Under the pieces are notes generated by a model that searched no databases, was not told the origin of the DNA, and saw only the letters and a program-made list of their open reading frames with translations. A program made the position numbers and the translations under genes. Shown here in pieces: positions 2,528 to 63,955 of a DNA stretch of 64,000 bases. Numbering within the stretch: the first letter of the stretch is position 1; each line of letters starts with the position of its first letter. The stretch lies in contig CAYWJA010000003.1 in assembly GCA_964458485.1 (NCBI GenBank), positions 30,524-94,523 of the forward strand, written 5' to 3'. This DNA comes from an uncultured Candidatus Peribacteria bacterium (GTDB taxonomy: Bacteria > Patescibacteriota > Gracilibacteria > UM-FILTER-43-11).

Positions 2528-3622
2528 TTATTTATTTATTTTAATTTTCCTCCCCTTTTTCCTCCCAAAAACAACTGCACCACCAAGGCCTGCCGCGGAA
2601 AAAATTAACCACCCAACAAGTGGGCCGTTTTGCGGCTGCAAAGGAATACTGGCAACTGTTTTTTGAAATAAGGTGGCAAAAGGATGCGTTGAGCTAAGTG
2701 GCTGATTTACTATCACACCTACTTCATTTGAGTAATCACTTTCCTTATTATTACTATCGTAAGCAGTTACTGCAAAATAGTAGGTTTGATTATTGGTAAG
2801 ACCACTAAGTCGGTAACTGGTTAAATTTCCTATAACTCTACGTCTGGAATATTGACCACTAACTTGTCCGTAATAAATATTGAAACCAGACCTATATAAA
2901 TCAGTTGTACCATCCCATTTTAAATCAACATATCCAGACCCTGTATTAACTTTAAGATTTGTAGGGCGTTTTAATGTTATTACCGATGTACCCCCTCCTA
3001 TATTTGTATTTAATGTGGTTACTGGTGTTGAAGTTGTAGTTGTTACCACAGGTGGTGTTGTAACCGTTGGAGCTGCAATAACTCCTGGATTTAATGTAAT
3101 AGATAATTCTGCTGGTTTTTTAGATAAAATATTTAAAGGAAATCCTGAATCAATTATATTTACACTCGCATGGCCAAGTTCACTTACCTGATAATCATAA
3201 AAGCTGATTTTGGATGTTGCAGCAGTAGCTGCAATAACCTCAAAGTTCACAGAGGCTACTGTTGTTTCTGTCTTCGTTACACCTCCGGAAATATTAGATC
3301 GGCCAATTTTAACACGCCCTTCAGATGAAGCAACTGTATCTTCCCCTGGCGCAGATAATGTAAAAAGTGAACTTTTTGTATCTATTCCAGTGGCTTTTAA
3401 AGACTTTGCATCATAAGTTAACCAAGATCGAACGGAGATTATCTTATTTGCACTTGGATTCTTTAATACAATATCCACCTTAAATTTATCGCCTTTCTTG
3501 GCACTAGTTACAGAAGATTTCAGCATAAGCTCTGCATCTTTTGTAGCTGCTGCGTATGTTGGCACAATCCCTGATAGGATTATTACTATTGCCGTTAGTG
3601 TTGTTATTAGTTTTTTCATCAT
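2528..3622 (-). CDS. Secreted cohesin-like + FN3 protein with C-terminal sorting-signal-like tail (candidate anchoring scaffoldin)
   Basis: Signal peptide (..GIVPTYAAA). Residues ~28-165 are cohesin-like (KGDKFKVDIVLKNPSANKIISVRSWLTYDAKSLKA..VASVNFEVIA). Residues ~219-305 are FN3-like (PTNLKVNTGSGYVDLKWDG..YYFAVTAYDSNNKESDYSNEV). C-terminus is IPLQPQNGP + hydrophobic helix + GRKKGRK. Confidence 0.75.
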   Translation of the reverse strand: MMKKLITTLTAIVIILSGIVPTYAAATKDAELMLKSSVTSAKKGDKFKVDIVLKNPSANKIISVRSWLTYDAKSLKATGIDTKSSLFTLSAPGEDTVASSEGRVKIGRSNISGGVTKTETTVASVNFEVIAATAATSKISFYDYQVSELGHASVNIIDSGFPLNILSKKPAELSITLNPGVIAAPTVTTPPVVTTTTSTPVTTLNTNIGGGTSVITLKRPTNLKVNTGSGYVDLKWDGTTDLYRSGFNIYYGQVSGQYSRRRVIGNLTSYRLSGLTNNQTYYFAVTAYDSNNKESDYSNEVGVIVNQPLSSTHPFATLFQKTVASIPLQPQNGPLVGWLIFSAAGLGGAVVFGRKKGRKIKINK

Positions 3623-3727: not shown

Positions 3728-4347
3728 TTAATAATTAAAAGTGGGCTACTCGGTTTTTCGAGTACGTTATAAGGTCTTGTATCGATTAATGTATTTGCGG
3801 AAGTATGTCCGGTTAAATCTTCACGATAGTCATAGGCATCAATTGCAGCACTTTTTCCTTCTAAAACTTCAAAAGTAACTACTGCAACGTGTATTTCTTT
3901 GTCTGTAACAGCTGTAGAGCTAGAACGCCCCAATTTCATTAAGCCATTTGTACTATCGAATGCATTAGCATATGGTGCATTAAGCGTAAAAGCTGATTTT
4001 GCAACATCAACTTCCACACCTTTTAACTTCGTTGGATCATAACTCAACCAACTTTGTACCGAAGTTATTGGCTTTTGATTTGTATTATCTAAAACAATGG
4101 TTACTTTTACTTTTTTATCTTCCTTTGTGGATTTAAGCACTAATTTCACATCTTTTGCAGCAACTTTGGCTTTTTTTAATGTTTCCTGAATGCTCTCTGT
4201 TGTAGATTTTTTTGATGTTTTTACAGTTTTGGTTATCGATTTTTTATTGTCGACTTTTGAAACTGCACTATCATCCTTACAACCAGTAAGTAAACTGGAA
4301 AGGATTAGAATGACTGCCGTTGCGATGATTATATCCTTAGGTTTCAT
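3721..4347 (-). CDS. Lipoprotein with a single cohesin-like module
   Basis: Lipobox LSSLLTGC after an N-terminal hydrophobic stretch. Module KVKVTIVLDNTNQKPITSVQSWLSYDPTKLKG..IHVAVVTFEVLEG parallels the cohesin-like module of 2528-3622. Confidence 0.7.
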   Translation of the reverse strand: MKPKDIIIATAVILILSSLLTGCKDDSAVSKVDNKKSITKTVKTSKKSTTESIQETLKKAKVAAKDVKLVLKSTKEDKKVKVTIVLDNTNQKPITSVQSWLSYDPTKLKGVEVDVAKSAFTLNAPYANAFDSTNGLMKLGRSSSTAVTDKEIHVAVVTFEVLEGKSAAIDAYDYREDLTGHTSANTLIDTRPYNVLEKPSSPLLIINQ

Positions 4348-8714: not shown

Positions 8715-11700
8715 TTACTTATTTACTTTATTAAAAAGAACTGCAACGTCGATCATGTCGACATCTCCGTCACCGTCCATGTCCGCAGCCTGTTTTTGGG
8801 CTGCTGTAGCAGTTGGTAAATTACCTCCTGCAATCTGAAAAGCTATTAATGCGTCTATTGTTGTAATTTTTCCATCACCATCTACATCACCACTTGCCAC
8901 CTTACCTATATATATAGGCATTACAGCGCTTGTCACCTTTCCTGACTTATCAACTATTTGCAAAACTAATGTATAACTTCCATCCGCCATATTTGCATCA
9001 ACTGGAATTTGAACTGGAATTTCGTAAATTTTATAATACTTTGCAGTAGTTGTTGTACCTCCTCCAGAAGAAGGACTACTTGAAGATGAGCTGGAACTAC
9101 TTGAAGAACTGCTTGAACTTGAACTAGATGAACTTGAGCTACTTGAAGAACTGGATGTCCCACTAGTCGTTCCGCTACTCGCTGTTGTTACATTATTTAC
9201 ATGTGTAGTAGCTGTATACCAAACAGCGCTTTTATCATCTTTTATTGTCGGATAAGTTTTTTTCTCTGTTCTAACAATATAAGAATTGATCTGGTCAATG
9301 TCGGCAATTGTTTCCGGTGAAGTTACTTTTACACTCAATTTAACCTGCCCACCTTTCTCGGCAGGATTACTACCAATTCTTTTTATATAATCAATTATGG
9401 CTTTTGAAGACACCTCTACGGTTAATGTGTTAACACTATTAACCTTTGTCCCATCAGGCTTTGCTATCTGTACATATAAATTAGTAGTACCAGTTGTGTC
9501 GCCTTTTGCCAAAATGCCAGAAGTTAAATATTTGTTACTTAATTTGTTGGTAGGATTATATTTCCATGTAACGTCATTGAAATTTAATTCCTTCATGGAG
9601 CCATCTAGATATTTTCCAAGAATGCGCAATTTATAAGTTGAATTTGGATGCAATGCTAATTTGCTTTCTACAGCAGGGACAACTATCACCTCCCCGCTTG
9701 AGGTTGTAACATCCTCTAGAGAAATTGTGCTATCTGCAGGTGTTAATTTTAAAAGACCTGGTGTATTTGATACTTTTGTAACTTTAATAAATGGCTGACC
9801 ATTCAACTCACTCAGTGCATCGATTAATCCATCTTTTGTTGTAGCTTTGCCATCAGGATCATTTAATATAGCATTTATTTTGTCTTTTTCTGTTGTAGCT
9901 GTAGATGTGGAAGGTAGAGTAGGAATTATTTTTGTGGTACTTCCGATTGTTATTGTTGCACCTGCAGCCTTAGATGAATTAACCATAAGGTATGCACTTT
10001 TATATGCATTACTTTTATCCATTACATCTAATTTTGAGATTGTGTCTTTATGTAAGGTTAAAATAAGGCTCGACAAAGTACTGAATGCACTTTTTTCGCA
10101 TGCTAATTTTGTAGTTGTACTTTTAGATGACTTTCCGTAACCGTTTTTAGAATCACATACATCACATAATCCTGATGTGCCACCATATCCTGTATTGCAT
10201 TGACATTTTCCCGTTGTGGTGTTGTATTGCCCATATACACATTTTAGTAACGGAGCTTTTGCTTTTACCGTAACTAAACCTTGTCTAAAATTTATAGCAT
10301 TTTTTGTAGTTGCTGAGGCAGAAGTTGTATAATATGAATTTGACGTTGATTTTTCATCGGCGTCTATAAGAATCTTTGTACCATCTGCCAATCCAGACAA
10401 AATACTTGTTTGAATTCTAAACAATAAAGCATTATCAGCCACATTTTTAGCAACCGTAGGTTTAACCTTAAGAGTTATTGTATCTTTTCCGCTTAATGTA
10501 GTAGATAAAGTAGTAACTACTGTTTCTCCACTAAATATAGTATCTGGTGAATAATTATTAACAAAGGCATATTGACTCTGAGTAGCGGTCGAAACTGGCT
10601 TAAGTTTAATCTGCAGTTCTGTTAATCCTGTTATTGCCTGAGCTGCTTTCACATCTATATATCCTTTAGTGCCAGCCTCAGCTGTATAGTCTGCAGGGAT
10701 ATAAACATTACGCAATGGTGTAGATGTATCTGTGGAAACATTTTCTGTACCACCTTTAAATGTACTTGTGATTTTTGTGACGGGAGTAGCTGTCTTGGTT
10801 TTTAATGTACAAACTGAACTTTTTAATTCATAACCATCAAGACAAGTGGCACAATCCTTTTTCGGATCAAGATTGGAACCTGTAGCACAAGCAGTACATA
10901 CTGCTACACCCTTAGTAGCCTTACAAGTTCCTCCATTTTTCTTACATACATTAGATGTGGATGAACAAGGATCTGTAATACATTTATTAGAGGAATCTAA
11001 TACATAACCTGTACTACATTTACACTGACCTGTTGATGCATCACACGAGCTATTTGTATCACTACATGTAACTCCGTAACACTTATCTACAACACATGTT
11101 GGGTAGCCCTTAAAACCTGCACTACATTTGTCACATACGGTGGTTTTAGTGCCCGCATAACCAGTATTGCATGTACACTTGCCATCACTACAAGTGCCAT
11201 AACCACAGCTGATATTTTTACATGTGTCTATGGTTATTTGTCCTGATTTAAAACTTGGCGCACCTCCTATACCCCCAATCCCTAAATCAATATAAGACGA
11301 AGAAGATGCGGAGGTTGATATTTTTTTATTACGTATATATATAGTCTGTTTGTTTTTACTCTTATTGCTAACTGATACAAAAAGCTTAAACAATACATCA
11401 TTATCTTTGAACTCATATAATTTATTAAAAGGGCCAAATTCAACCGAATATTCGCCAATGCCAACATTAATTTTTTCACTTTCTTTTTCTAATTTTGCCC
11501 CTTTCTTATCAATCTTCCATATAGCATATTCGTCCGAAGAAATTATAAATGTCAATTTAAATGCTTTAACATTTTTTAAATTCCTTCCTGCTCTAACTTC
11601 CACATAATCAAAATCACCTGGTGCTGCAATATAATTTGGTATATAAAACATATCATCTATCTTTGATGTATCATTTGTGCCAAGTTGAAATTTATCGTAG

Positions 11701-12035
11701 CTACCAGTAGTTTTCCCAACAATTTGTGAGCCTCCTCTGGTTTGACTAGCTGTCGGATCTGTCGGTATAATTGGTGCAACACCTCTAGTATTTCTGGCAG
11801 CATCTATGGCTCTATCTTGCCCCTCTGCCGATTGTGGTCCACCAGCCCCCCCTTCCTCTTCCACTACGATTGCAGGAGCCCCTCTTCTACCTTCTCCAAT
11901 AGTTGCCTTAAACAAACTCGGATTCTTATAAGCCACAATGCTCAATGCAGTTACTACAACCACAACGAATACGGTTAGAATATTGCGCCATAGGTGGCTT
12001 GTTTTTTTGATTTCTGTTTGGTTTTCGTTTTCCAT
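8715..12035 (-). CDS. Giant surface protein (1106 aa): TM anchor, EGF-like Cys-rich region, cohesin-like modules, poly-Ser, C-terminal two-repeat dockerin
   Basis: TM ILTVFVVVVVTALSIVA followed by NPSLFKA. Cys-rich residues ~272-409 (CGYGTCSDGKCTCNTGYAG..QCKCSTGYVLD). 26-residue Ser run. C-terminus GDVDGDGKITTIDALIAF..ADMDGDGDVDMIDVAVLF matches the type-I dockerin duplicated Ca-binding pattern. Confidence 0.85.
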   Translation of the reverse strand: MENENQTEIKKTSHLWRNILTVFVVVVVTALSIVAYKNPSLFKATIGEGRRGAPAIVVEEEGGAGGPQSAEGQDRAIDAARNTRGVAPIIPTDPTASQTRGGSQIVGKTTGSYDKFQLGTNDTSKIDDMFYIPNYIAAPGDFDYVEVRAGRNLKNVKAFKLTFIISSDEYAIWKIDKKGAKLEKESEKINVGIGEYSVEFGPFNKLYEFKDNDVLFKLFVSVSNKSKNKQTIYIRNKKISTSASSSSYIDLGIGGIGGAPSFKSGQITIDTCKNISCGYGTCSDGKCTCNTGYAGTKTTVCDKCSAGFKGYPTCVVDKCYGVTCSDTNSSCDASTGQCKCSTGYVLDSSNKCITDPCSSTSNVCKKNGGTCKATKGVAVCTACATGSNLDPKKDCATCLDGYELKSSVCTLKTKTATPVTKITSTFKGGTENVSTDTSTPLRNVYIPADYTAEAGTKGYIDVKAAQAITGLTELQIKLKPVSTATQSQYAFVNNYSPDTIFSGETVVTTLSTTLSGKDTITLKVKPTVAKNVADNALLFRIQTSILSGLADGTKILIDADEKSTSNSYYTTSASATTKNAINFRQGLVTVKAKAPLLKCVYGQYNTTTGKCQCNTGYGGTSGLCDVCDSKNGYGKSSKSTTTKLACEKSAFSTLSSLILTLHKDTISKLDVMDKSNAYKSAYLMVNSSKAAGATITIGSTTKIIPTLPSTSTATTEKDKINAILNDPDGKATTKDGLIDALSELNGQPFIKVTKVSNTPGLLKLTPADSTISLEDVTTSSGEVIVVPAVESKLALHPNSTYKLRILGKYLDGSMKELNFNDVTWKYNPTNKLSNKYLTSGILAKGDTTGTTNLYVQIAKPDGTKVNSVNTLTVEVSSKAIIDYIKRIGSNPAEKGGQVKLSVKVTSPETIADIDQINSYIVRTEKKTYPTIKDDKSAVWYTATTHVNNVTTASSGTTSGTSSSSSSSSSSSSSSSSSSSSSSSSSSSPSSGGGTTTTAKYYKIYEIPVQIPVDANMADGSYTLVLQIVDKSGKVTSAVMPIYIGKVASGDVDGDGKITTIDALIAFQIAGGNLPTATAAQKQAADMDGDGDVDMIDVAVLFNKVNK

Positions 12036-12108: not shown

Positions 12109-13113
12109 AGTTAATAAGTTCATAGCTAAAAGGATTCCGAGGCTCATAGATAGGGATTCCTCTAGTAAATTAAAATTAATATGTCTTACAATCGGTAAAT
12201 GTTTCCATAATCGAGAAAAATATTGAAACCGATTTTTGTGTGGTTCTGACTCCTTTAACATTTGCATAAGTTCTTTGTGCACATGGCTCCTACTCCAATG
12301 ATTTGTATATTTTTCTATTAAGATGTAACGAACTGTGGAGAATGTAATTAATGTAATGAAGTAAAGAGAAAGTGCCACTGCAAAAATTCCTGCAAAGAAG
12401 TAAACTATCATTGATCCGGTTAATGCAAAAAACATTGCCGTAATTATTTGTGCAGGATTTATGTAATCTTCTTTTGTTTTAAAATAAATTTTTGTAAGAC
12501 TATGTATTAAATAAATAATACTTGCTGTAACTGGTATCCAGATACTAGTTGATTTTGAAAGCAGGCTAAAATTTAATATATTCCACGATCCGTAAAGCAT
12601 TTCTGGAACCTTAACCATTAGGTTTAATCCCCAGAATGTAAAAAAGAATAAAGCTATTTGAGCAACAACAAGTATTGCACCACGATGATGAATTCTTTCG
12701 TTAACATCATAAATTTTATGTAATTCATCTTCAGCTGCACCAACGCTAAGTTCACCTCGGTTAAAACGATCCACAAGCTTCTTGTGAAATAGATGAATCT
12801 TTTTTTGTTTAAACTGAATTCTCGCACTTGGATACAAAAGTATTAATTCAACTGCAATAGCAAGAACTACGATGGAAATTAATACACTTCCACCTGACAT
12901 TTGCATTAAGCTGTTAAACACGATTGAAAAAATCTTAGCAACTTCTGCTTTGAACCCAGTGTAAACCAAAGGACTGACCTGTGCGCCGGTTAGCACACTT
13001 TCTGTAGCACTGTTGTGCAATTCTACACCAGATGTATTGCCTTGCATAAAGGCCAGGTAAACACTTAGTGCAAATAGTGTTAGTGTTGCTGTTATTAAAC
13101 TTAATTTTTTCAT
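12106..13113 (-). CDS. Polytopic membrane protein, probably a divergent YidC/Oxa1-type insertase
   Basis: Signal/TM at the N-terminus. The pattern GSVLISIVVLAIAVELILLYPSARIQFKQKK..ELHKIYDVNERIHHRGAILVVAQIALFFFTFWGL resembles the YidC TM2, coiled hairpin and TM3 layout. About 5 TM segments. Assignment is by eye only. Confidence 0.45.
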   Translation of the reverse strand: MKKLSLITATLTLFALSVYLAFMQGNTSGVELHNSATESVLTGAQVSPLVYTGFKAEVAKIFSIVFNSLMQMSGGSVLISIVVLAIAVELILLYPSARIQFKQKKIHLFHKKLVDRFNRGELSVGAAEDELHKIYDVNERIHHRGAILVVAQIALFFFTFWGLNLMVKVPEMLYGSWNILNFSLLSKSTSIWIPVTASIIYLIHSLTKIYFKTKEDYINPAQIITAMFFALTGSMIVYFFAGIFAVALSLYFITLITFSTVRYILIEKYTNHWSRSHVHKELMQMLKESEPHKNRFQYFSRLWKHLPIVRHINFNLLEESLSMSLGILLAMNLLT

Positions 13114-36844: not shown

Positions 36845-37747
36845 GTGTACAAACAAATATCTTCCAATAAGCGTAACACCTGGATCCTCCTAATAGTATT
36901 CATAATGTTCTTTTTAGGACTTGGATACTTAATGGGTTTTATTTATACAGAAAATGACCAGGCAGCAATTGGTTATATGGGTGCTTTTGGAATTGGCGCG
37001 ATGATTTATTCGACCATAAGTTATTATGCAGCTGGCAAACTAACACTTGCGATTGCACATGCAAAAGAGATTCAAAAACGGGATAATCCGACTTTATATA
37101 GAACTGTTGAAAATTTATGTATTGCATCCGGTTTGCCTACGCCAAAGATATATTTAATTGATGATACTGCTTTAAATGCTTTTGCGACCGGCAGGGACCC
37201 CAAGCACGCAGCAGTTGCTATAACAAAAGGGCTTTTAAATAAACTAGAAAAAACTGAGCTTGAGGGGGTAATGGCACATGAACTTTCTCATATTAAAAAT
37301 TACGACATCCGTTTACAAAGTTTTACAGTAGCGCTGATTGGATTGATTGCACTTGTTTCCGATATATTTTTGAGATCTATGTTTTATGGAAGGCGCTCAA
37401 ATAATCGAAGTAAGGGGGGTGGAATACTTATAATTATTGGTATTGTACTTGCAATTCTGAGTCCAATTATCGCAAAACTGATGCAACTTGCCATTTCCCG
37501 CGAACGAGAATATTTAGCAGACGCAAGCGGTGCACTTATGACGAGGTATCCGGAGGGACTTATAAAAGCTCTTCAAAAAATTTCTGCAGATCATGAGCCT
37601 TTGGAAGTTGCAAATAAAGCAACTGCACATTTATACATTGAAAATCCCTTAAGGAATGAAAAGGGAATGAAGTGGTTAAATAAATTATTTTCAACACATC
37701 CTCCTATGGAGGAAAGGATTAAAAGATTAAGGCATATGGGGACATAG
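36845..37747 (+). CDS. htpX: Zinc metalloprotease HtpX (M48)
   Basis: HELSHIKNYD HExxH motif, 4 TM segments and C-terminal STHPPMEERI. GTG start abuts a repeat hairpin. Confidence 0.88.
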   Translation: MYKQISSNKRNTWILLIVFIMFFLGLGYLMGFIYTENDQAAIGYMGAFGIGAMIYSTISYYAAGKLTLAIAHAKEIQKRDNPTLYRTVENLCIASGLPTPKIYLIDDTALNAFATGRDPKHAAVAITKGLLNKLEKTELEGVMAHELSHIKNYDIRLQSFTVALIGLIALVSDIFLRSMFYGRRSNNRSKGGGILIIIGIVLAILSPIIAKLMQLAISREREYLADASGALMTRYPEGLIKALQKISADHEPLEVANKATAHLYIENPLRNEKGMKWLNKLFSTHPPMEERIKRLRHMGT

Positions 37748-47267: not shown

Positions 47268-47406
47268 TTCATTTCGCATTTTGCATTTCTGATTTCGCAA
47301 TCACATTTAGCATTTTTTCATTTGGCAATTTATTTGATTATTTTAGTAAATGCAGAATGCTAAATGTAAAATGACAATGCGAAATCTGAGATGCGAGATG
47401 CGAAAT
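47268..47406. repeat. ~140-bp imperfect palindrome (CATTTCGCAT units)
   Basis: The left arm CATTTCGCATTTTGCATTTCTGATTTCGCAATCACATTTAGCATT pairs with the reverse complement of AATGCTAAATGTAAAATGACAATGCGAAATCTGAGATGCGAGATGCGAAATG. Confidence 0.85.
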
Positions 47407-47529
47407 GTTTATTGTAGCATACAAGATCATCAAAAATTTTTCAATCATCAAAAGTAGCTTATGTTACATAATACAAAAAACCTCCTCGACAATATGCCAG
47501 AGAAGGTTTTATCTTGTAATTAGACGAAT

Positions 47530-47805
47530 TTATCTAACTGCATCTTTTAAGCTCTTACCAGCTTTAAATGCAGGAATCTTCATAGCTGGAATTTTGATTT
47601 TTATAGATGGATTGCGTGGGTTAACACCAGTGCGAGCTGCACGTTTGCTAACACGGAAAGTTCCGAAACCAGTAATGGTTACATTCTTTCCTTTTTTAAG
47701 TTCTTTTGTTACTGCAGAAAGAAGAGCATCTAAAGAAACAGCGGCTGTTTTTTTTGTAACGCCTGCTGCAGATGCAATTGCTGCAATTAGATCTTGTTTA
47801 GTCAT
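47530..47805 (-). CDS. hup: HU/IHF-family nucleoid protein
   Basis: MTKQDLIAAIA..GFGTFRVSKRAARTGVNPRNP..IPAFKAGKSLKDAV. 91 aa. Confidence 0.92.
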   Translation of the reverse strand: MTKQDLIAAIASAAGVTKKTAAVSLDALLSAVTKELKKGKNVTITGFGTFRVSKRAARTGVNPRNPSIKIKIPAMKIPAFKAGKSLKDAVR

Positions 47806-48129
47806 AGCTAAATTAAGTTAAAATGATAAAATCTGCTACTTCATAATTTCGGAAGAGCAGGGGCAAGTATAGTAGTATAAAAAGTGTCTGGCAAGGGTTT
47901 TTTCGCTTTATTTAGCGAAAAAGTCATATGTATGCTTTTTTTATTCAAATAAAATGGCTTATTTAAGCCAAAATTTAATAATTTGACGAAATAACGATTT
48001 TTCTGTCAAAGCTAATTTTTGGCTCTATTAACACAAAAAAACGCTTGACTTTGATATTTTGAAATGGTAAATAAGAGTTCCTAATCAGTAATTAAAAAAT
48101 AATTTTTTGTATTAACGTGAATATTTTGT

Positions 48130-50926: not shown

Positions 50927-53900
50927 CTATAAAATAATCTCCACTTTATAATTTCTGTCTTTGGGATATTCTCCATAATGCCTACCTAGTATTCTTTTTT
51001 TATGCATTAGCTTAGAATGTCCAATTATACGTTTTGTAGCTAAATCTGTAACATGTGCCAATTGCTCATCATCAGACTGCTTAATATGATCATGCAATTT
51101 CATCGCGGCTTTTGGTATTTGTATATCAACCTCAGGCCCCTCTATAAGATCACTATGTGAATCATTATAGAAAAATTGTAATATATTTAATTCTTCTAAA
51201 AACTCAAGCTGCTGTCCATCGCTCAATTTCCCATATACATCAATCAACACATCTCCATATCCTTCGTCATTCCACCTATTTTCATCTAAAAATAATAAAT
51301 CAATTAAATATGGGAAATTATCATTTTTAGACAATCTTAGAACGACAGAATGAAATATGTCTTTGTCGGAATGTGCAGCTTTATAATCTACAGTCCATAA
51401 CCTTAAAAATTCAACCTCATCTTTAATACTTAAAATAAAATCCATTTTTTGCTGCTGCAAATCTAAAGATTTCCTTTTGTATTTTCCATTTATCCTTTTC
51501 TGTAAAGCACCCCTTGATAAGGCTAGATCTTGATCAATATTTTTTTGATCTTTGGCAAATTGTTCAAACCAGCTGTCTTCTTTTAGATCTAGTCCATACT
51601 CCTCATCCCAATCTTCTTGTAATCTTTCCATTAGTTCTGCAGGCATCTGTTCAATTCCAAGCTTTGTTGCAATAGAATTAATAATTAAAACAACTTTTGC
51701 CAAATTGTATTTTAGTTGTGCATATTTAGACCCTTCTTCTTTTGATAAATCACAAATTTTTTCAATAATAATTGGTAATTGATTAATTTGATATTGCCAA
51801 AAATCTATTATTCCCTGCTTCATCTCTCCAGGCATATCATCAATGATGGCTAACATTCCAATCATACGCTTACGAGTTGGTTTTCTTGTGAATATTAAAT
51901 CAGTGGTTTCCAAAAAGTCGTTAGCATAAAAACTAATTGAATCGTTAGGGTCCATTTTACTGTCATCTTCTTTAATTTCCTCGATAATATCTGGAGTAGA
52001 ATGCCCCCAAAACAATAATTGCTTATAAAATTCCACCTGCTTCAATCTTAAAAGTTTCTCGTCATCACTATCTGCATCATTAATATATCTGAATAATCTC
52101 AATAATACATCTTGCTTTTTTGTATCTAATTCAAAAAAATCACACATTCTCCTTTTAGACCAGCTATTCCCACCTTGTAAGAAATATTCTAATACACTTT
52201 CTGCATGCACATTTTCATCAATATCAACACTCCTATATACACCATGTGATTGATATAAATTTTCTTTTAATATATTTAAAGATACATTATCGTCAAAGTC
52301 TCTGGCTTCAGGATAACTGACTGGACATGTTAAGAATACCTGATTTCTTTCGGATGCCGCATTATAATCATGAAAATCCTGACAATCGACCAAATTCCAA
52401 ATATCTGATTCGTTATCAAGTTGTCCATCTGTTGCAATGCATAAATCACTATGTGAATCAATCGATCTGCCTCTGGCTGCATTATAAATTACATCAAAAA
52501 TAAATTTTGAAACTGCTGCTACATAAAATGGTATATTCTCCCTTGTTAGCAGGCTGCTTCTAGATTCTACTAATACCTTTCTGACCTCTCCTCGTGCCTC
52601 TTGTTCTATGCTTACTTCATCTTCCTCAGCTAAAAAAGATTGTGCAACTTTCTGTATGCGATTATATAAATTGCTTTCAAAATCACAATCCCTGCTATGA
52701 TGCAGTACCTGCCCATCTTTACAATGAGTAATAAAAAATTCACTCTCAGGCATATAATACCTGCCCCAATTATATAAACCTCCGCCTCTTTCATGATCAT
52801 TATCTGCAGCATCTGGTGTCCTACGAAATGTCTTACATTTAAAAGATCTGGGGTTATTACCAATAGACACCATCATTCTTATGCCTTCTTCTGAAGATTT
52901 TTTTTGAAATAATTCTACCAAATAAGAATCACCTTCCGCCGTGCTGTTATGCGATCTAACTATATAACACTTTCTATCATGACTAAGTAAAAATTGAATA
53001 TCTGTTGGTAAGTTATCTTCGAATTCTTCGAGTATAGCCTCTGTCGAAAAATCAGCACTATAATCAGATTCATGCTCAAGGCTATTAACATACATTATTT
53101 CGCCTAATTCACTTTGCTGACCCCATATAAGAGGTTCTGCAAAATATTTAATAATATCAGCAATATCAGCAATTTTAGGTAACTCACCCTCCATCACATC
53201 AGCATTAAGCAATGTTCTAAAAAAATCATTAACACAAGCTTTCTCATAATTTTTTATAGATTTATCAAATACAATAGGATTTGTTATATGCTTTACAGCT
53301 GTAGGGCGAGACACATACCTTCTTTTGGTGACATCGTAATAACTAAGCATTAAAACGCTATTGCACTTCTTTCTCTCTTCCCAATACTCCTTACCCTTTG
53401 TGTGCATATGTTGGCTTGCAGTACGATGGTCAATCGTAGCAGTCCTGTATCTAAGTCCTTCCCAACTTGTTATACTTGGCCGCTTTGCCCCCAGCCTACC
53501 AAGCTTAAAAATTTGTTCATACTCATCACCAATTCCATATAATTCCCTTGCAACACCTATTGGCAATGTGCCAAATCCTCCAAATGCACCCGCAGGGCTA
53601 TGGGCATAACGAAGAATATGTGATTGAAAAATTTCAGTCCTATTCTGCCCTTTTGTTGGCCCCGAATAACCAGCCTTATCTCTTAGCTTAGCAATTGTTT
53701 TAAATAAATTGGCAAAAAAATTATCTGGATCATCTAAAATTCTATCAGCTATTAATAATATTTGTGCATCTAGATCTGGGTGTGCATCTGATGCACCTAT
53801 ATTATCAAGAATGCCATAAGCCTCTTTGGATATTTCTGACACTAAACCATATCCGATAAAGCTGAATAAATTTTTACTGTATACATCTTTATGGTCCTTA

Positions 53901-54136
53901 TTTTTCTCTGAAAAATCTCGTAATCCATCCCCAGCACTTTCCGTGAATTCATACATTATCCATCTGCTATATGCTGTTTGCAGGGAAGAGAATTTATCTA
54001 AGTCAATCGCTGCAAGCCTTTCGTGAAAATATTGGAAAAAATTATCCGGCTTTTTTAGCCTAGGTTCTTTTTCCCGAACATGTTCAGTGTCAGGGATAGA
54101 ATGCAACCCGTTCTCATGACTATGAGGTGTTTCCAT
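50927..54136 (-). CDS. Orphan protein, 1069 aa, no signal/TM and no motif I recognise
   Basis: Uninterrupted ORF. Starts 3 nt after the upstream ORF ends. Confidence 0.7.
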   Translation of the reverse strand: METPHSHENGLHSIPDTEHVREKEPRLKKPDNFFQYFHERLAAIDLDKFSSLQTAYSRWIMYEFTESAGDGLRDFSEKNKDHKDVYSKNLFSFIGYGLVSEISKEAYGILDNIGASDAHPDLDAQILLIADRILDDPDNFFANLFKTIAKLRDKAGYSGPTKGQNRTEIFQSHILRYAHSPAGAFGGFGTLPIGVARELYGIGDEYEQIFKLGRLGAKRPSITSWEGLRYRTATIDHRTASQHMHTKGKEYWEERKKCNSVLMLSYYDVTKRRYVSRPTAVKHITNPIVFDKSIKNYEKACVNDFFRTLLNADVMEGELPKIADIADIIKYFAEPLIWGQQSELGEIMYVNSLEHESDYSADFSTEAILEEFEDNLPTDIQFLLSHDRKCYIVRSHNSTAEGDSYLVELFQKKSSEEGIRMMVSIGNNPRSFKCKTFRRTPDAADNDHERGGGLYNWGRYYMPESEFFITHCKDGQVLHHSRDCDFESNLYNRIQKVAQSFLAEEDEVSIEQEARGEVRKVLVESRSSLLTRENIPFYVAAVSKFIFDVIYNAARGRSIDSHSDLCIATDGQLDNESDIWNLVDCQDFHDYNAASERNQVFLTCPVSYPEARDFDDNVSLNILKENLYQSHGVYRSVDIDENVHAESVLEYFLQGGNSWSKRRMCDFFELDTKKQDVLLRLFRYINDADSDDEKLLRLKQVEFYKQLLFWGHSTPDIIEEIKEDDSKMDPNDSISFYANDFLETTDLIFTRKPTRKRMIGMLAIIDDMPGEMKQGIIDFWQYQINQLPIIIEKICDLSKEEGSKYAQLKYNLAKVVLIINSIATKLGIEQMPAELMERLQEDWDEEYGLDLKEDSWFEQFAKDQKNIDQDLALSRGALQKRINGKYKRKSLDLQQQKMDFILSIKDEVEFLRLWTVDYKAAHSDKDIFHSVVLRLSKNDNFPYLIDLLFLDENRWNDEGYGDVLIDVYGKLSDGQQLEFLEELNILQFFYNDSHSDLIEGPEVDIQIPKAAMKLHDHIKQSDDEQLAHVTDLATKRIIGHSKLMHKKRILGRHYGEYPKDRNYKVEIIL

Positions 54137-54139
54137 GGA

Positions 54140-55591
54140 TTATAATTCACGTTCATCATCTGAATCCTTATCCGGTGTGCTTGAATCTGCTAAAGGTATG
54201 TCTTTTTTTGCGGCAGTAGAATGAGGTTCTGTAGAACTAGCACGACCTGCTCCTATCCTTCTTTCGGCTGCTGACTGTGTAAGCAAAGCAACGGCGGGGT
54301 TAAGATAAGCTTGAGTTTCTAATTTTAATTTATCTATTTCTACACCTAAAAAATTACTAAAAACAGCATCAATATAAGCTTTTAATGGCATTCCAACTGG
54401 CATTTGTATGCTCCATTTAAGCTTTCTCCATCTTGCCTTAGTAATCAATTCTTTTATAACTGGATCATATAACTCTTGGTGATGAGTAAAAAGTGTATCT
54501 AAGTATTCCTCTACTCCCTCGGCCTCAGTAAAAATTCTTGAAGGATGTGCAATTTGTGGTGCATCAAGGTCAAGGCCTACCGGAGATATTGCTGTAGATA
54601 ACAACTCATCGTCATTGTTGTGCATTATATGAGATGCCTCAGCCTCTCCTTGAAGATACTGCTCCTCCTCTTCTATTTCTTCATTTTCCAACACCCTGTG
54701 TGTAGATGGAAGAATAAGATCTCCAGATTCTTCTACGAGCCTATAATTTAATAATTTCAAAGCAATTAAATACGCTAATCCATCGCTAGGATCCTGTAGA
54801 TCTCCAACTACTTCATCGTCCAATTTTTTTGCGCACTCAATTAAACGATTATAAGCTCTTGGTGATAAACCTTCATCTACTTCTTTTAATAAACGATAAA
54901 TTGGTGTTGTGCCTGGTCTTTTCTTAACCTTCATGAGGATCAAAGCAATTAAAAGTGCAGGCTCTGTCCTTGGGAACAAGTCTAATTTCTCAACGCCTAA
55001 TAAACCTACTAATACATCATAAATATCACGATTTCCCAACATTTCTGTATACCGCATTCCAATTATTAATTGTTCGCGTGTTGACAGTGTTCCAAACTTT
55101 CTGCCAATAAAAGTTCTTCTAAAAGATGCAAGAGCTTTATTTGCAGAAAACTTTCTTGCACTTCTGTCCGCACTTACTGCCTTAATTAAAATACTAAACA
55201 CTTCTGCTATCAACTGAGGCCTTGCATCCACATCAAAAGAGCTTTCCATAAGACCTGGCATTCCTTTTGTCATGCCATCTATAACTCTAAATGGATCTTC
55301 TCCAAGTGTACTTTGAACACCTCTTCTTTGAGTCAATGAAACACTAACTGCACCGGGGGTCTTTTTGTCTGCCTCAGTGCCATGTTCTGATGACTCTGGA
55401 ATTGCAGTCTCTTTTGATTCTACCATACCTGAATCTTTAGGCTGTGATAGATCTTCTGGTGCACTAGCTCCAGATTCATCTTGTTCAGGTGTCATTTTTA
55501 ATAAATCACCTACTTCAGAACGCTTTATTTCTGCACTTGGCGCTTGTGCTTGTGCAGGGTCTTTAGGCCCTTTTGGAGTGTTGGAAGGCAT
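54140..55591 (-). CDS. Orphan protein, 483 aa, with disordered acidic/Pro-rich N-terminal ~100 aa
   Basis: Uninterrupted ORF. First gene of a two-gene minus-strand unit. Confidence 0.65.
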   Translation of the reverse strand: MPSNTPKGPKDPAQAQAPSAEIKRSEVGDLLKMTPEQDESGASAPEDLSQPKDSGMVESKETAIPESSEHGTEADKKTPGAVSVSLTQRRGVQSTLGEDPFRVIDGMTKGMPGLMESSFDVDARPQLIAEVFSILIKAVSADRSARKFSANKALASFRRTFIGRKFGTLSTREQLIIGMRYTEMLGNRDIYDVLVGLLGVEKLDLFPRTEPALLIALILMKVKKRPGTTPIYRLLKEVDEGLSPRAYNRLIECAKKLDDEVVGDLQDPSDGLAYLIALKLLNYRLVEESGDLILPSTHRVLENEEIEEEEQYLQGEAEASHIMHNNDDELLSTAISPVGLDLDAPQIAHPSRIFTEAEGVEEYLDTLFTHHQELYDPVIKELITKARWRKLKWSIQMPVGMPLKAYIDAVFSNFLGVEIDKLKLETQAYLNPAVALLTQSAAERRIGAGRASSTEPHSTAAKKDIPLADSSTPDKDSDDEREL

Positions 55592-59777: not shown

Positions 59778-60103
59778 CCTTTCCCAAATATCTGTCTTCG
59801 CTCTACAGAAAGTTCGCTTTGCTTCGATTTTTTTAGCTTCGGGGCCCACCGAAGGATACCCAAAACTAAAAAAATTCTACACATGCTCACTTTCTTATGA
59901 GCTCACTTATTTTATATTTTCCGAAAACCTTTAAAAACTAAGCCGCTTATCATAAATTGAATGGGCGGTTTTTGGAATTAAAATTTGTTGAACGACCGCC
60001 TGGAGTGAACCAGGCGGCCGCTTGTTGCGAGTTGGACATCAGCCTTCCTGAAGCACGGGGTATCCGGGCTTAGGTGACTACTGCCACAGTGGTTGTCCTG
60101 CCA

Positions 60104-61153
60104 TTACTTCCTCTTCCCCTTCTTCTTCTTCTCCTTCTTCTTCTCCTTCTTCTGCACGACCTCCTGTATGAACATGGGGCCACCCATATACATTATACCT
60201 CTGGTCACCGGCGCTCCCATGATGAATGGCCAGGACGACGGATTGATCTTCTTTGCGTTAAACGGGATCCTTTGGGCGGGGCGTATGGTGAAGATTACAC
60301 CGCTCGTGCCGTTCGTGATGTAAGCCATGAAAGACTTCTGCTTCATGAATCGGTCCGACTCGGTGTCGATGGTGAAGGTTCGATCGTAGATGCGGAGGCT
60401 GTAAATCTTGGGGTCGAGCCTGTAGGTCTTCATGCCCCCCATACGGCCGTGGTGCTCTAGCCTGACGGACTTCCTGGGCTTGGCCTTCTTGAGGTAGAAG
60501 TCATTCTTCTTGCCGAAGTAGTACCTCTTGTCATTCATGTGGAAGTAGGTGTAGACGAACTTCTTGCTGCTGGTGGGGTGCTTGATCTGGACCACGTTGT
60601 CGAAAACCCTGAGGCCGACAGCACCTTGGCGCAGCTTAAGCCCATCCTCCTCCTTTTTAGCATCCGAGATGTAGCGGTTGTGGTACTGCCAGTCGCCCTT
60701 CTTGTAGATAAGGAGCCCTGCGAACTTGTTGGAGTTGTCCTTGGGGCGCAAGGAGTAGATCATGGTCTGGCCGTTGGGGTACAGCACGGGCTTGGTGCCG
60801 TCGATGCGGTACTCCTCGGACCAGACGAGGGCGTGGTACCACACTCCGTTGAAAATGGCAACCTTCGACCCCTTACTGGAAGAGGTAAGCAGGAAGATGC
60901 TCCTCGTCCTCTTATCCTGGACCAGCCCGTTGAAGATCGCGGCCTCCAGGCCGTGCATGATGGGGCGTTTCTTGTACCCATCCGCAGAGTTTCCGATGTA
61001 GCTAGGGACACCCTTGGAGAGGGAGAAATGCACCGACTCGTCGCCGAGCTCGAAGCTGAAGTCCGCGGCGTAGCCGGAACCGGCGTAGGTGGGTGCGGTG
61101 CCCAGGAGGACAACCGCAAAAAGGGTGAATGCAATCAACTTTCGATAACTCAC
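60104..61153 (-). CDS. Secreted protein of unknown function encoded by a compositionally foreign high-GC gene
   Basis: 349-aa ORF. GTG start preceded by GGAGG with a 7-nt spacer. Signal peptide ..LLGTAPTYAGS. Lys/Glu tail QKKEKKKEKKKKGKRK. G/C-ending codons, unlike all neighbours. Confidence 0.75.
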   Translation of the reverse strand: MSYRKLIAFTLFAVVLLGTAPTYAGSGYAADFSFELGDESVHFSLSKGVPSYIGNSADGYKKRPIMHGLEAAIFNGLVQDKRTRSIFLLTSSSKGSKVAIFNGVWYHALVWSEEYRIDGTKPVLYPNGQTMIYSLRPKDNSNKFAGLLIYKKGDWQYHNRYISDAKKEEDGLKLRQGAVGLRVFDNVVQIKHPTSSKKFVYTYFHMNDKRYYFGKKNDFYLKKAKPRKSVRLEHHGRMGGMKTYRLDPKIYSLRIYDRTFTIDTESDRFMKQKSFMAYITNGTSGVIFTIRPAQRIPFNAKKINPSSWPFIMGAPVTRGIMYMGGPMFIQEVVQKKEKKKEKKKKGKRK

Positions 61154-61201
61154 TTCAACACCTCCATGGTATTGAATAATGATCGGCCAAAATTGACCCC
61201 T

Positions 61202-61252
61202 TCGAAGTCACATACTTAATATTAAATATTAAAACCAAATATGTGACTTCGA
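61202..61252. promoter_or_regulatory. Perfect 13-bp inverted repeat TCGAAGTCACATA-N25-TATGTGACTTCGA at the AT-rich edge of the GC island
   Basis: Read directly. Lies 49-99 bp upstream of the GTG start of the GC-rich gene. Confidence 0.6.
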
Positions 61253-61400
61253 GTTACTTAACAGGCAGGACATTTAGAGGTCATATAATATACCTCCAAA
61301 TCAATACCTGCTAAGAATTAATAATGTAAAAGAACATAGGATTATATATATAATACATATTTTATAATTTTGTCAACTTAAAACTCAAAAATATATTCTC

Positions 61401-61430
61401 TTGCAAGTCAATCCCAACATAGGTTAAAAT
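61401..61430 (+). promoter_or_regulatory. Sigma70-like promoter for 61461-62003
   Basis: TTGCAA, 18 nt, then TAAAAT. Confidence 0.45.
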
Positions 61431-61460
61431 ACGATCCTTTAATATATAAAATATATAATT

Positions 61461-62003
61461 ATGGTACAAGAAAAGCACAAATTAAGTGAATTATTAGATA
61501 AAAAGCTTGATATGAGCAATGTAATGGACCCTGGAGAAGTTAAGCAACTTTTCGAATTAATAAATTCTGCTGATAAATTAGAAGAAGGCTTTGCTGAAGC
61601 AGTTGCAAAGTTAATTAACACCCTTAGGACTGTAATGGGCGGAGGTATGAATAATGCAGAAGGCGATGATGGCTATATTTCAAGCTTATCTGATGGTAAT
61701 ATGCCTGGCTTTATCGTAAAGCTAACAAAAAATCCCCAAGGATTAGTGGTGCAAACAACAGACCCCGATAATGATCATTTATATAAATTGAAACTCATTG
61801 CTGACGGAGAAAGGTGTGGTATGCAATACGCATCGGAAGATGGAAAAGATGAGCCAAGTGGTGAACTTTCATTTAAAAGACTATGGACTATGGACGATGC
61901 TGGTAATTTTGCCGGCTCAACTCTTGATCATGAAGGCAGAAGTCCATTTAAAATTATCAGGCAGGAGATCGAAAGAGTGCTGGAAGAAGCTGAAGCTGCT
62001 TAA
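61461..62003 (+). CDS. Acidic hypothetical protein (180 aa)
   Basis: ORF with a sigma70-like promoter about 30 nt upstream. Confidence 0.5.
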   Translation: MVQEKHKLSELLDKKLDMSNVMDPGEVKQLFELINSADKLEEGFAEAVAKLINTLRTVMGGGMNNAEGDDGYISSLSDGNMPGFIVKLTKNPQGLVVQTTDPDNDHLYKLKLIADGERCGMQYASEDGKDEPSGELSFKRLWTMDDAGNFAGSTLDHEGRSPFKIIRQEIERVLEEAEAA

Positions 62004-62077
62004 TAATCAAATTTGCCTACGTTTCTAATTACTGGTAAGTTATTAGAGCTTATTTTTAATGAAGTGTGATTGTTAAG

Positions 62078-62109
62078 CCTTGAGACTTGAGACTCGCACT
62101 TGAGACTTA
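62078..62109. repeat. Solo arm of the CTTGAGAC family
   Basis: CCTTGAGACTTGAGACTCGCACTTGAGACTTA, close to 23966-23994. Confidence 0.7.
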
Positions 62110-62114
62110 ATTTT

Positions 62115-63410
62115 ATGATAATAACAATTAATGATGCCAAAAACCACATAGATAAAGAAGCCACCATCCAAGGCTGGATGTATAACAAACGTGGTAGTGG
62201 GAAAATTTATTTTTTACAACTTCGTGATGGTACTGGCATGATGCAGGCTGTGGCTTTTAAGGGTGACACCCCGAATAATGTAATGCAAATTGCAGATGAA
62301 CTTACCATGGAATCATCTGTAAAAGTTACTGGTAAAATTACTCAGCATCCAAAAAAAGATGATGTATTTGAGATGCAGGTAAAAGATATTGAGGTAGTAC
62401 AAATGGTTGAAGGAGAATATCCAATTAGTAAAAAGGAGCATGGGCCGGATTTTTTACTGGATAACAGGCATTTATGGCTTAGATCCGGTAAACAATGGGC
62501 AATTCAGAGAGTAAGAAATACAATTATTAATGCAACCTATGAATATTTGAATAATAATAATTTCATTAAGATTGACTCCCCTATTTTTACTCCAAATGCT
62601 TGTGAAGGAACTACTGAGCTTTTTGAAGTACCTTATTTTGAGGATGAAAGTGCATACCTTACGCAATCCGGACAGCTTTATATAGAGGCTGCAATCATGA
62701 GCCATGGCAGAGTATTTGATTTTGGCCCTGTTTTCCGGGCCGAAAAATCTAAAACAAGGCGTCATCTAACAGAATTCTGGATGATGGACGCAGAAATGGC
62801 ATTCGTAGAACACACAGGTAATATGGATATTCAAGAGGGGCTTATTTGCCATATTGTTAAAAAAGTATTGGAAATTAATAAAAAGGAATTAGAAATACTA
62901 GAGCGTGATATTGAACCACTGACAAAAATTGAAGTGCCGTTTATTCGCAAAACTCATTCAGAAGTTATAGAAGAGCTTCATAGCATGGGTTCAGATATAG
63001 GTAAAAAAGATGATCTTGGTGCAGATGATGAAACAATACTTACCAAAAAATATGACAAACCTATATTTGTTGAAAAATACCCATCTGAAGTAAAGGCTTT
63101 TTACATGAAGAGAGACCCTGAGAATGAGTCGCTGGCATTATGTTCAGATCTATTAGCACCTGAGGGTTATGGCGAGATAATAGGTGGCAGTCAACGTGAA
63201 GATGATTATGATGTCATTCTAAATAGAATAAAAGAGCATAATCTAGACCCAAAAGTATTTGAATGGTATTTGGATTTGCGAAAATACGGCTCTGTACCGC
63301 ATAGTGGGTTTGGCTATGGTCTCGAAAGGATTACTGGCTGGATTACAGGTGTAAAACACATACGCGAAACAATACCATTCCCGAGGATGCTTAGTAGGCT
63401 GACTCCTTAA
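62115..63410 (+). CDS. asnS: Asparagine--tRNA ligase
   Basis: Class IIb motifs FRAEKSKTRRHLTEFWMMDAEMAF and GFGYGLERITGW. About 430 aa. Start taken at ATG 62115; the TTG at 62100 lies in a repeat arm. Confidence 0.88.
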   Translation: MIITINDAKNHIDKEATIQGWMYNKRGSGKIYFLQLRDGTGMMQAVAFKGDTPNNVMQIADELTMESSVKVTGKITQHPKKDDVFEMQVKDIEVVQMVEGEYPISKKEHGPDFLLDNRHLWLRSGKQWAIQRVRNTIINATYEYLNNNNFIKIDSPIFTPNACEGTTELFEVPYFEDESAYLTQSGQLYIEAAIMSHGRVFDFGPVFRAEKSKTRRHLTEFWMMDAEMAFVEHTGNMDIQEGLICHIVKKVLEINKKELEILERDIEPLTKIEVPFIRKTHSEVIEELHSMGSDIGKKDDLGADDETILTKKYDKPIFVEKYPSEVKAFYMKRDPENESLALCSDLLAPEGYGEIIGGSQREDDYDVILNRIKEHNLDPKVFEWYLDLRKYGSVPHSGFGYGLERITGWITGVKHIRETIPFPRMLSRLTP

Positions 63411-63424
63411 AAAATTTTTAATTA

Positions 63425-63955
63425 TTAAATATATTTATTTAATTGTGATTCATATTTTGCTATAGCTTTCTTTATAGTGTTTCTTATATTTACAGAAGTA
63501 TATCCCCAGATATTATCATCATAATCAATTGGTATTTTTAATACTCCATCCTTAAAGGAAGTGCGATATCCCCGTCCATCAATTAGATCTAATTGGATTT
63601 TTGGTAAATGTCTTTTTTCATCTTTGGTTAAGCCATTAATTGCGTCTTTGATTTGATCAAGGTTTTTTTCTGCATTGTCGATGTCAGCATTATGATCATT
63701 TTTAAATAACATCCTCCTAATGCCAAGTTCATCTGCTAAGTTATTCAATTTAGATTGAAATTTTGCTATTCTTGGATTTGACATCCTCTTGCCTACCTGT
63801 TCATTTTTACGTTTTATAGGATTTTTTGGTACAACTAAATCTTCTACTCTTATTTCACCATTATTAATTTGTTTTATAACTTTATTAATCTCATCTACGC
63901 CTTTTTTTGTCCATGGATTATATTTATTTGGTTTTCGAGACATTATTAATACCAT
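63425..63955 (-). CDS. Basic hypothetical protein (176 aa)
   Basis: ORF only. Confidence 0.45.
   Translation of the reverse strand: MVLIMSRKPNKYNPWTKKGVDEINKVIKQINNGEIRVEDLVVPKNPIKRKNEQVGKRMSNPRIAKFQSKLNNLADELGIRRMLFKNDHNADIDNAEKNLDQIKDAINGLTKDEKRHLPKIQLDLIDGRGYRTSFKDGVLKIPIDYDDNIWGYTSVNIRNTIKKAIAKYESQLNKYI

Follow-up and report, generated by a model that had tools for sequence, protein, structure and literature searches.

A compositionally atypical single-gene islet encoding an orphan, putatively secreted protein in a Peribacteria-like bacterium

How does a single gene come to differ sharply in base composition from the genes around it, and does the difference reveal where it came from? These questions are raised by a 1.2-kb islet in a 64,000-nucleotide stretch (hereafter, the window) of an uncultured Candidatus Peribacteria genome (GenBank assembly GCA_964458485.1, contig CAYWJA010000003.1, positions 30,524 to 94,523), in which one gene for a putatively secreted protein lies between groEL and asnS. 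A preliminary description of this DNA had proposed that the gene came very recently, and still without amelioration, from some high-GC organism, which could be the host if this bacterium is an episymbiont. Our analysis upholds the foreign unit but not the high-GC donor or host, as the first and second codon positions and the amino acids of the gene are native-like. With a probability of about 0.5, we read the islet as a horizontally acquired, strain-variable single-gene cassette from a moderately GC-rich donor (~55–60% G+C), likeliest another Patescibacterium. Foreign origin is the simplest reading because the gene carries a Shine–Dalgarno (SD) sequence that the native genes lack. Most likely, this is an islet of an ordinary kind, laterally acquired and holding one orphan gene for a secreted protein. 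What is unusual is that it is foreign at silent sites only, that it has the sole SD in the window and that look-alike cassettes exist in other, mostly SD-less, Patescibacteria loci.

A sharply bounded GC-rich islet

The segment 59991–61200 contains 55.1% G+C, compared to 35.3% in the remaining 62.8 kb of the window. Across the 64 kb, 1-kb subwindows averaged 35.7% (s.d. 3.3) and exceeded 45% only where they overlapped the islet. This confirmed the abrupt composition jumps previously placed at about 59991 and 61200, marking the sole such stretch in 64 kb, and three lines of sequence counted by hand in the preliminary description were exact on recounting (61.7%, 55.0% and 15.0% G+C). A two-breakpoint maximum-likelihood fit located the change points at 59993 and 61117, while an alternative junction in another contig, L096, set the right edge at 61213/61214 (L and P numbers are our handles for contigs or loci and for proteins). 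The 3′ untranslated region (UTR; 113 nt) has 60% G+C and the 60 nt upstream of the start codon ~42%. The islet is therefore a real, cleanly delimited and self-contained unit of SD, coding sequence (CDS) and terminator that is compositionally alien to its surroundings. Its features are listed in Table 1.

Table 1 Coordinates of the islet and its features, numbered from the first nucleotide of the window
Feature	Position	Strand	Basis or remark
Compositional islet, ~55% G+C, one transcription unit	59993..61213	.	GC profile, maximum-likelihood change points, L096 junction
GC-rich 3′ UTR with probable intrinsic terminator	59993..60103	-	Inverted repeat, folding z = -4.1
CDS, 349 aa, GTG start, orphan secreted all-beta protein (predicted)	60104..61153	-	Open reading frame (ORF) list, third-position G+C, homologs, AlphaFold2 model
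Polycationic C-terminal tail QKKEKKKEKKKKGKRK, encoded by (AAG/GAG)n low-complexity run	60107..60154	-	Sequence; homologs without tail
Predicted Sec signal peptide MSYRKLIAFTLFAVVLLGTAPTYA, cleaved before GS	61082..61153	-	Read from sequence; cleavage site inferred
Predicted 9-bp hairpin UUCAAUACC / GGUGUUGAA over 3′ half of SD	61154..61176	-	Folding prediction
SD GGAGGTG, 5 nt before GTG (GGAGG 7 nt before)	61159..61165	-	Sole canonical SD among 41 window genes
Predicted long leader hairpin, core inverted repeat 61202-61225 / 61229-61252	61194..61283	-	Repeat search, folding
Candidate sigma-70-like promoter (TTAGCA-16-TATATT), located in the AT-rich flank	61287..61314	-	Consensus match only

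One explanation for such a profile is an assembly or binning artifact, in which a GC-rich fragment of another organism was joined into an AT-rich contig. Several assemblies do end inside or beside the islet (L001 at 60085, L004 at 60411 and L003 at 60483). At the (AAG)n run, L002 passes into 73 nt of foreign sequence and an N gap, and L096 likewise carries 33 foreign nucleotides. Against an artifact, 100% identity to the window was seen in eight further contigs, which represent seven sample assemblies and two pipelines (L001, L002, L003, which is the same contig as L092, L004, L093, L094, L095 and L096; samples JGI 3300009332, 3300009374 and 3300009375, ENA SAMN10231901, -904 and -924 and, belonging to another study, SAMN11854494). 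The left, groEL-side junction was crossed at 100% by L003, L004 and L093 and at 99.97% by the groEL-side piece of L002, the right junction at 100% by L001, L002, L094 and L095; these contigs derive from JGI and ENA assemblies of different samples. L003 and L094, which come from one sample, have 45 nt of the CDS in common. Breaks or misjoins occur at the (AAG/GAG)n run in L001, L002 and L093; contigs are interrupted at this low-complexity tail or within the CDS and not at the composition boundaries. Because contigs of several samples match at 100% over both junctions, a chimeric assembly is effectively excluded and misassembly is very unlikely.

L002, an ENA scaffold (1322–1418, window ~60120), departs inside the (AAG)n tail into unrelated AT-rich DNA, giving a protein end ...KKKNNNKFKK before the stop; its 73-nt tail opens another ORF (MSNITAYIILLVAVVLGTASN) ahead of the N gap, representing a misjoin caused by the repeat or else another genomic context. 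L096, a contig of a separate study, corresponds to 61214–63093 at 100%. The 33 nt at its start are AT-rich and unrelated, which places the divergence exactly on the edge of the islet, and by this junction it loses the left arm of the inverted repeat at 61202–61252. Both tails suggest strain-level heterogeneity, are short and could be assembly-graph tips.

Absence from the closest relatives

The window's GroEL is 85%, 82% and 78% identical to those of three loci from Patescibacteria/Peribacteria metagenome-assembled genomes (MAGs; L005, L006 and L007), which on sequence grounds identifies the genome as that of a Peribacteria-like candidate phyla radiation (CPR) bacterium. The islet occupies a variable spacer between groEL and asnS, with DUF3352, groES/EL, asnS and topA as housekeeping neighbors. 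As the preliminary description had suggested, we checked presence or absence in relatives. The gene is missing from all three loci, where groEL is followed by a lipoprotein gene, two membrane protein genes or an unrelated ORF; in L006, asnS is reached 1.9 kb past groEL without the islet gene and without the gene for its 180-aa neighbor. By this comparison the islet appears to be strain-variable and patchy, absent from the syntenic site of the closest relatives.

Around the islet, we found no tRNA, integrase, transposase, att site or significant flanking direct repeat, in line with the earlier failure to see an integrase or direct repeats. Two 16–17-nt partial matches with the same spacing were considered as a target duplication and dismissed as chance, since their flanks cannot be aligned.

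An anomaly confined to silent and untranslated sites

Codon position analysis located the anomaly within the gene. The G+C contents of its first, second and third codon positions (GC1/GC2/GC3) are 0.454/0.374/0.826, compared to 0.449/0.352/0.272 (s.d. 0.049/0.062/0.048) in the 40 native genes of the window. With z values of 0.1, 0.4 and 11.6, the third position alone is aberrant. The G/C-ending codons noticed earlier in the 349-aa ORF were thus substantiated: AAG provides 95% of Lys, GAG 100% of Glu, ACC 82%, CCC 67% and ATC 73% of their respective codons, the opposite of native usage, and NNC accounts for 70–90% of the twofold pyrimidine-ending pairs. Arg is encoded by AGG in 9 of 21 cases (43%) and never by CGG, TTA is likewise absent and the first 14 codons, covering the signal-peptide region, use AT-ending codons. 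The encoded residues follow native-like usage, with 12.0% Lys, 6.0% Arg, 37.5% Phe, Tyr, Met, Ile, Asn and Lys combined and 24% Gly, Ala, Arg and Pro combined. At a Lys/(Lys + Arg) ratio of 0.67, the protein lacks the Arg-over-Lys signature, rich in Gly, Ala, Arg and Pro, of a >60% G+C genome.

These values bear on the proposal that the gene was recently acquired, without amelioration, from a classical high-GC bacterium (>60% G+C), possibly the host of an episymbiont after uptake of host DNA. The organism is CPR-like, and such bacteria may acquire DNA from their hosts; the gene is absent from its relatives, a GC3 of 0.83 gives no sign of amelioration and the SD, GC-rich 3′ UTR and hairpin all look foreign. 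In >60% G+C bacteria, however, GC1, GC2 and amino acid usage shift with genome G+C. As all three are native-like here, GC1 and GC2 equaling the native means, a donor above 60% G+C is unlikely. The twofold excess of Lys over Arg, the prominence of AGG and the lack of CGG are unlike proteins of such genomes; at 60% G+C, the Patescibacterium L014 has groEL-flanking ORFs with 0.4–2% Lys and 8–9% Arg. Moreover, after a very recent transfer one would expect the same metagenomes to contain a nearly identical version from the donor. The ~15 billion proteins searched, those of the same samples included, yielded none; the homologs described below all reside in low-GC contigs. We consequently regard a classical high-GC donor as decidedly improbable.

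Variation within the clade offers a closer parallel. The groEL of L008, a locus of the Peribacteria MAG CAZURX01, is 77–78% identical and has GC1/GC2/GC3 values of 0.61/0.38/0.82 with 0.46–0.48 C at third positions, compared to 0.56/0.37/0.24 for the window groEL. Within the clade, GC3 therefore swings by ~0.6 while GC1 and GC2 barely move, which is the pattern of the islet. Since GC-rich Peribacteria with such a groEL exist, a gene imported from such a relative would resemble the islet gene. Ca. Peribacter riflensis has 58.5% G+C (PMC4736985), and most detected transfers into Patescibacteria came from other Patescibacteria (PMC12455944). We infer that the likeliest donor is probably of this type, for example a GC-rich Peribacterium with similar proteome composition, rather than a classical high-GC host. 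Among the groEL genes compared, codon usage closest to that of the islet gene was seen in L046 (Chloroflexi; correlation 0.86), L008 (0.84), L014 (0.84) and L034 (0.80), three of the four being Patescibacteria. As a means of pinning down the donor these values were rejected, since the correlations mostly track GC3 and are nondiscriminating.

L008 itself is compositionally mixed: its groEL (2–1456, + strand) has 60% G+C, the following spacer 31% and the next gene (1500–2217, NYN-like) 34%. Either groEL or its neighbor is compositionally foreign there.

Translation and transcription signals

The SD that sets the gene apart (Table 1) had been noted as GGAGG 7 nt before GTG among SD-less native genes, and both halves of that statement hold: none of the 40 native genes has at least 5 nt of AGGAGGTGA at usable spacing, and their leaders are A-rich. 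The 140-nt leader of the islet gene is predicted to be structured (folding z = -5.35). Its inverted repeat straddles the boundary, with the left arm in the islet and the right arm in the conserved flank; L096 shares the sequence from 61214 onward only. Downstream of the CDS, the GC hairpin reported earlier, CCGCCTGG-N6-CCAGGCGG at 59996–60017, was recovered and extends to 13 bp at 59993–60020, followed by U-rich UUCAACAAAUUUU.

A structured RNA gene as the cause of the GC peak was rejected, as Rfam returned sub-threshold chance matches only and the ORF is conserved at the protein level. No Rfam family was detected in the window islet or in the GC peaks of L005, L018, L089 and L008.

An orphan protein with three distant relatives

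Read by eye, the N terminus suggests the three regions of a signal peptide (n, h and c) and a cleavage site resembling AXA (MSYRK-LIAFTLFAVVLLG-TAPTYA, followed by G), and homolog N termini are similar. Both the signal-peptide-like N terminus and the basic tail mentioned in the preliminary description were borne out by the sequence. The mature protein, at ~37.5 kDa, has an isoelectric point (pI) of ~10 and no Cys, while its homologs P0005 and P0006 are acidic (pI ~5.4).

Pfam, NCBIfam, PHROGs and PADLOC contained nothing significant for the islet protein, its homologs or the other cassette proteins described below, and a sequence-profile search of the PDB with the islet protein gave chance matches only. 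A word-indexed search of 5.8 billion clusters recovered the islet protein itself and nothing else. A full HMMER pass over 1.84 billion representatives detected three relatives, P0005 (E = 2.7e-12), P0006 (5.7e-9) and P0007 (7.5e-8), with 23–28% identity to the islet protein. The earlier statement that no recognizable family exists is thus accurate for curated libraries and needs amending for a tiny four-member family, whose members all have hydrophobic N termini and share the motifs SIF, G..V.I.NG, F.GLL and QI.H. Sequence and structure searches, as had been recommended for tracing the donor lineage, yielded three homologs in low-GC contigs and weak propeller matches but no donor. No homolog appeared in plasmids or phages (tblastn) or in IMG/VR viral contigs, the latter scanned using an alignment of the family as well as two of the other cassette products, leaving a plasmid or phage origin unsupported.

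An AlphaFold2 model of the islet protein is all beta, with a mean predicted local distance difference test (pLDDT) score of 71 and a predicted template modeling (pTM) score of 0.56. Foldseek matches in the PDB and BFVD were almost all propellers (kelch, WD40, YWTD and TolB), with template modeling (TM) scores of 0.20–0.33 and root mean square deviations mostly >10 Å, and P0006 had a sub-threshold match to major royal jelly protein (MRJP). These matches are generic propellers and, at TM ≤0.33, too weak for a functional call. Together with the charge and N terminus, the model is consistent with a Sec-exported, polycationic, propeller-like surface or host-contact protein.

Homolog contexts and look-alike cassettes

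All three homologs are located in low-GC contigs. P0005 comes from an SD-using contig of 38% G+C and has a native-like GC3 of 0.41, and P0007 and P0011 lie in 29% G+C DNA with a GC3 of 0.29. P0006 is encoded in 36–38% G+C DNA with SD-less native genes; the gene itself has 55.7% G+C and a GC3 of 0.75, GGGAGG before its ATG and its own terminator. The silent-site anomaly therefore occurs twice in the family, in the islet gene and in P0006.

The P0006 genome holds a second cassette 3.6 kb away (L089), a 285-aa lipoprotein gene with 54.7% G+C, GC3 of 0.71, an AGGAG-GTG start and its own hairpin. Between flanks that are 100% identical, L089 (1364–2221, - strand) and L091 (110–955, + strand) carry lipoprotein alleles of 64% identity, both GC3-rich (0.71–0.74), which makes the locus a replaceable or hypervariable module. 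Hypermutation of the diversity-generating retroelement type was rejected, as the eight contigs covering the window show no variation and the L089/L091 substitutions are symmetric, without A-specific bias. The sole match of the L086/L089 flank is a 35% MurJ match to a Parcubacteria locus.

A scan of 80 groEL loci for cassettes, performed with a detection threshold, added two single-gene cassettes, each with an SD-like motif and a terminator and encoding an orphan without signal peptide: L005 4700–5305 (- strand; 55.9% G+C, GC3 0.72) and L018 2940–3611 (+ strand; 56.1% G+C, GC3 0.71). Outside the Patescibacteria-labeled loci the scan found no cassette, an anecdotal observation; its one other flag was a peak in the already GC-rich Chloroflexi locus L046. 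Of the cassette carriers, L005 represents the nearest relative to the organism of the window, and L018 has a second GC peak (12201–12900) with no long ORF and no Rfam match.

In total, five cassettes from four genomes range from 54.7% to 56.1% in total G+C, with GC3 of 0.71–0.83 and GC1 + GC2 of 0.83–0.97. All encode orphans and have SD-like motifs, which native genes lack in the window as well as in L089/L086 and L005. Their codon usage correlates at 0.76–0.88 and their first 15 codons are AT-richer, as expected for expressed genes. No terminal motif of at least 8 nt is common to the five, and literature searches turned up no account of cassettes from CPR genomes that are GC3-rich and led by an SD.

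This recurrence brings up another origin, in which the high GC3 of this accessory surface-protein locus was produced or maintained in place, by selection (on mRNA stability or structure, for a special SD-dependent translation regime or for codon-based control of expression) or by GC-biased gene conversion at a recombination hot spot; the GC content would then be no signature of a donor. Such a process would fit an anomaly confined to silent and UTR sites, a family never seen in GC-rich DNA, two homologs of 23–25% identity that are both anomalous in different AT-rich, SD-less genomes and the convergence of five cassettes on a narrow total G+C despite variable GC3 and GC1 + GC2. The SD-like motifs in five of five cassettes point the same way, as do the L089/L091 alleles, where the GC-rich tract coincides with a recombining module. 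However, no bacterial process is known to lift GC3 by 55 points in one gene, translational selection would not favor AAG or GAG in an AT-rich genome, the highly expressed groEL of the window has a GC3 of 0.24 and the gene is missing from the closest relatives. The convergence, furthermore, comprises five cases only, found with a detection threshold. We consider an origin in place unlikely.

A broader version of this idea would be that AT-rich, SD-less Patescibacteria carry a distinct class of ~55–56% G+C single-gene cassettes whose silent sites are maintained in place, with the window islet as a member. Each would combine a canonical or near-canonical SD, its own terminator and an orphan product, several of them secreted proteins or lipoproteins, and upkeep might occur through mRNA selection, through a ‘second’ regime of translation that depends on the SD or, where surface-protein loci hyper-recombine, through biased gene conversion. 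The cassettes would then not be remnants of a donor. We put this forward as a distinctly unlikely, tentative scenario.

Weighing horizontal acquisition

Several observations weigh against acquisition from a moderately GC-rich Patescibacterium. Neither a donor copy nor a close homolog was present among the ~15 billion proteins, no homolog of any kind occurred in a GC-rich genome and the family members other than the islet gene all lie in low-GC DNA. The islet GC1 of 0.45 is low even for a relative of 58% G+C, and the AGG, AAG and GAG fractions exceed those of the GC-rich CPR groEL genes compared. Because a homolog of 25% identity has the same anomaly in another genome, one must assume either that transfer happened twice independently or that a bias is maintained. 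There is no integrase, att site or direct repeat to account for the insertion, and functional interpretation draws on weak structural matches (TM ≤0.33) and charge. Lastly, the matching assemblies may stem from a single site or time series, and they speak for the reality of the junctions rather than for a wide spread of the islet.

Under horizontal acquisition, a cassette of SD, CDS and its own terminator hairpin would have inserted into the variable groEL–asnS spacer of an AT-rich, SD-less genome. Most likely, transcription would start near 61300, where a sigma-70-like promoter is resident in AT-rich DNA, and proceed through the structured leader, with translation initiating at GTG by canonical pairing of SD and anti-SD, a mode used by no native gene of the window. 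The product would be exported by Sec and cleaved after Ala24, and the mature protein of ~37 kDa and pI ~10, combining a propeller-like fold and a lysine tail, may bind anionic envelope material of the cell's own surface or of a partner cell. It could thus act as an adhesin or host-contact factor.

Relationship to known systems

The islet resembles the compositionally atypical, horizontally acquired islets of the Lawrence–Ochman amelioration framework in its abrupt jump of GC and codon usage, its accessory nature, its absence from relatives and its own expression signals. It differs in that silent and UTR sites alone are atypical, with native-like GC1 and GC2. Partial amelioration relaxes GC3 first, the opposite of the pattern seen here. 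Compared to other horizontally acquired islets, there is also no mobility gene, tRNA site, repeat or identifiable donor.

Replacement-type flexible genomic islands, in which one locus holds strain-specific versions of exposed surface structures, share the variable site between conserved genes and a product predicted to be secreted; L096 and L002 hint at alternative junctions, and L089/L091 shows allele replacement between identical flanks. Such islands are multigene glycosylation clusters, whereas the islet is one 1.2-kb gene for which no second allele was seen. Integron cassettes are similar as compact single ORFs with a 3′ inverted repeat downstream of a resident promoter. In contrast to these, neither an integrase nor attI nor an array of cassettes occurs in the window, the hairpin of the islet is a simple 13-bp GC stem rather than an attC with R and L boxes and the five cassettes have no common motif.

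At the protein level, the predicted all-beta fold and Foldseek propellers connect the islet product to secreted beta-propeller, kelch, YWTD and TolB-like proteins, but with TM scores of 0.20–0.33, at most 13% identity and no Pfam, NCBIfam or PDB sequence match. For translation, a parallel exists in SD-poor systems with rare SD-led genes, such as Bacteroidota, where rpsU keeps an SD. Here, too, native genes are SD-less and one gene has a perfect 7-nt SD; the likeness is by analogy, with the 16S rRNA 3′ end outside the window. Peregrinibacteria often lack bS21 (PMC9297842).

Other features of the window

Several further genes of the window are orphans without a Pfam family: two neighbors of the islet with native composition at 61461–62003 (+ strand, 180 aa) and 63425–63955 (- strand, 176 aa) and two large upstream ORFs in 50927–55591 (- strand, 1069 aa and 483 aa). 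At least eight native genes, with A-rich leaders, have a TAACC(C/A)A-like motif ~8–14 nt before ATG, located upstream of the starts at 4347 (-), 20029 (-), 22904 (-), 26145 (-), 27656 (+), 32469 (-), 48687 (+) and 58084 (+). This motif may be a lineage-specific initiation signal. In addition, short tandem duplications abut the start codons of 2528–3622 (-), 36845–37747 (+), 8715–12035 (-), 47405–47821 (+) and 62100–63410 (+), comprising ATCACCAAT(A/C)GG twice at two unrelated genes and CTGACTC, GAGATGC and CTTGAGA, each twice, at others. In L005, a repeat of similar kind is located between groES and groEL.

Implications

The islet marks a strain-variable, probably surface-exposed and strongly basic protein, a candidate contact factor of an uncultured CPR bacterium. 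Its ‘foreign GC’ does not point to a high-GC host. Inferring a host or donor from GC alone would mislead in CPR genomes, because the anomaly affects silent sites only, the protein family is confined to low-GC genomes and GC3 among Peribacteria differs by ~0.6 while protein composition stays steady. Should the recurrent SD-led cassettes of 55–56% G+C prove to be maintained rather than imported, they would reveal that SD-less bacteria can control composition and translation gene by gene.

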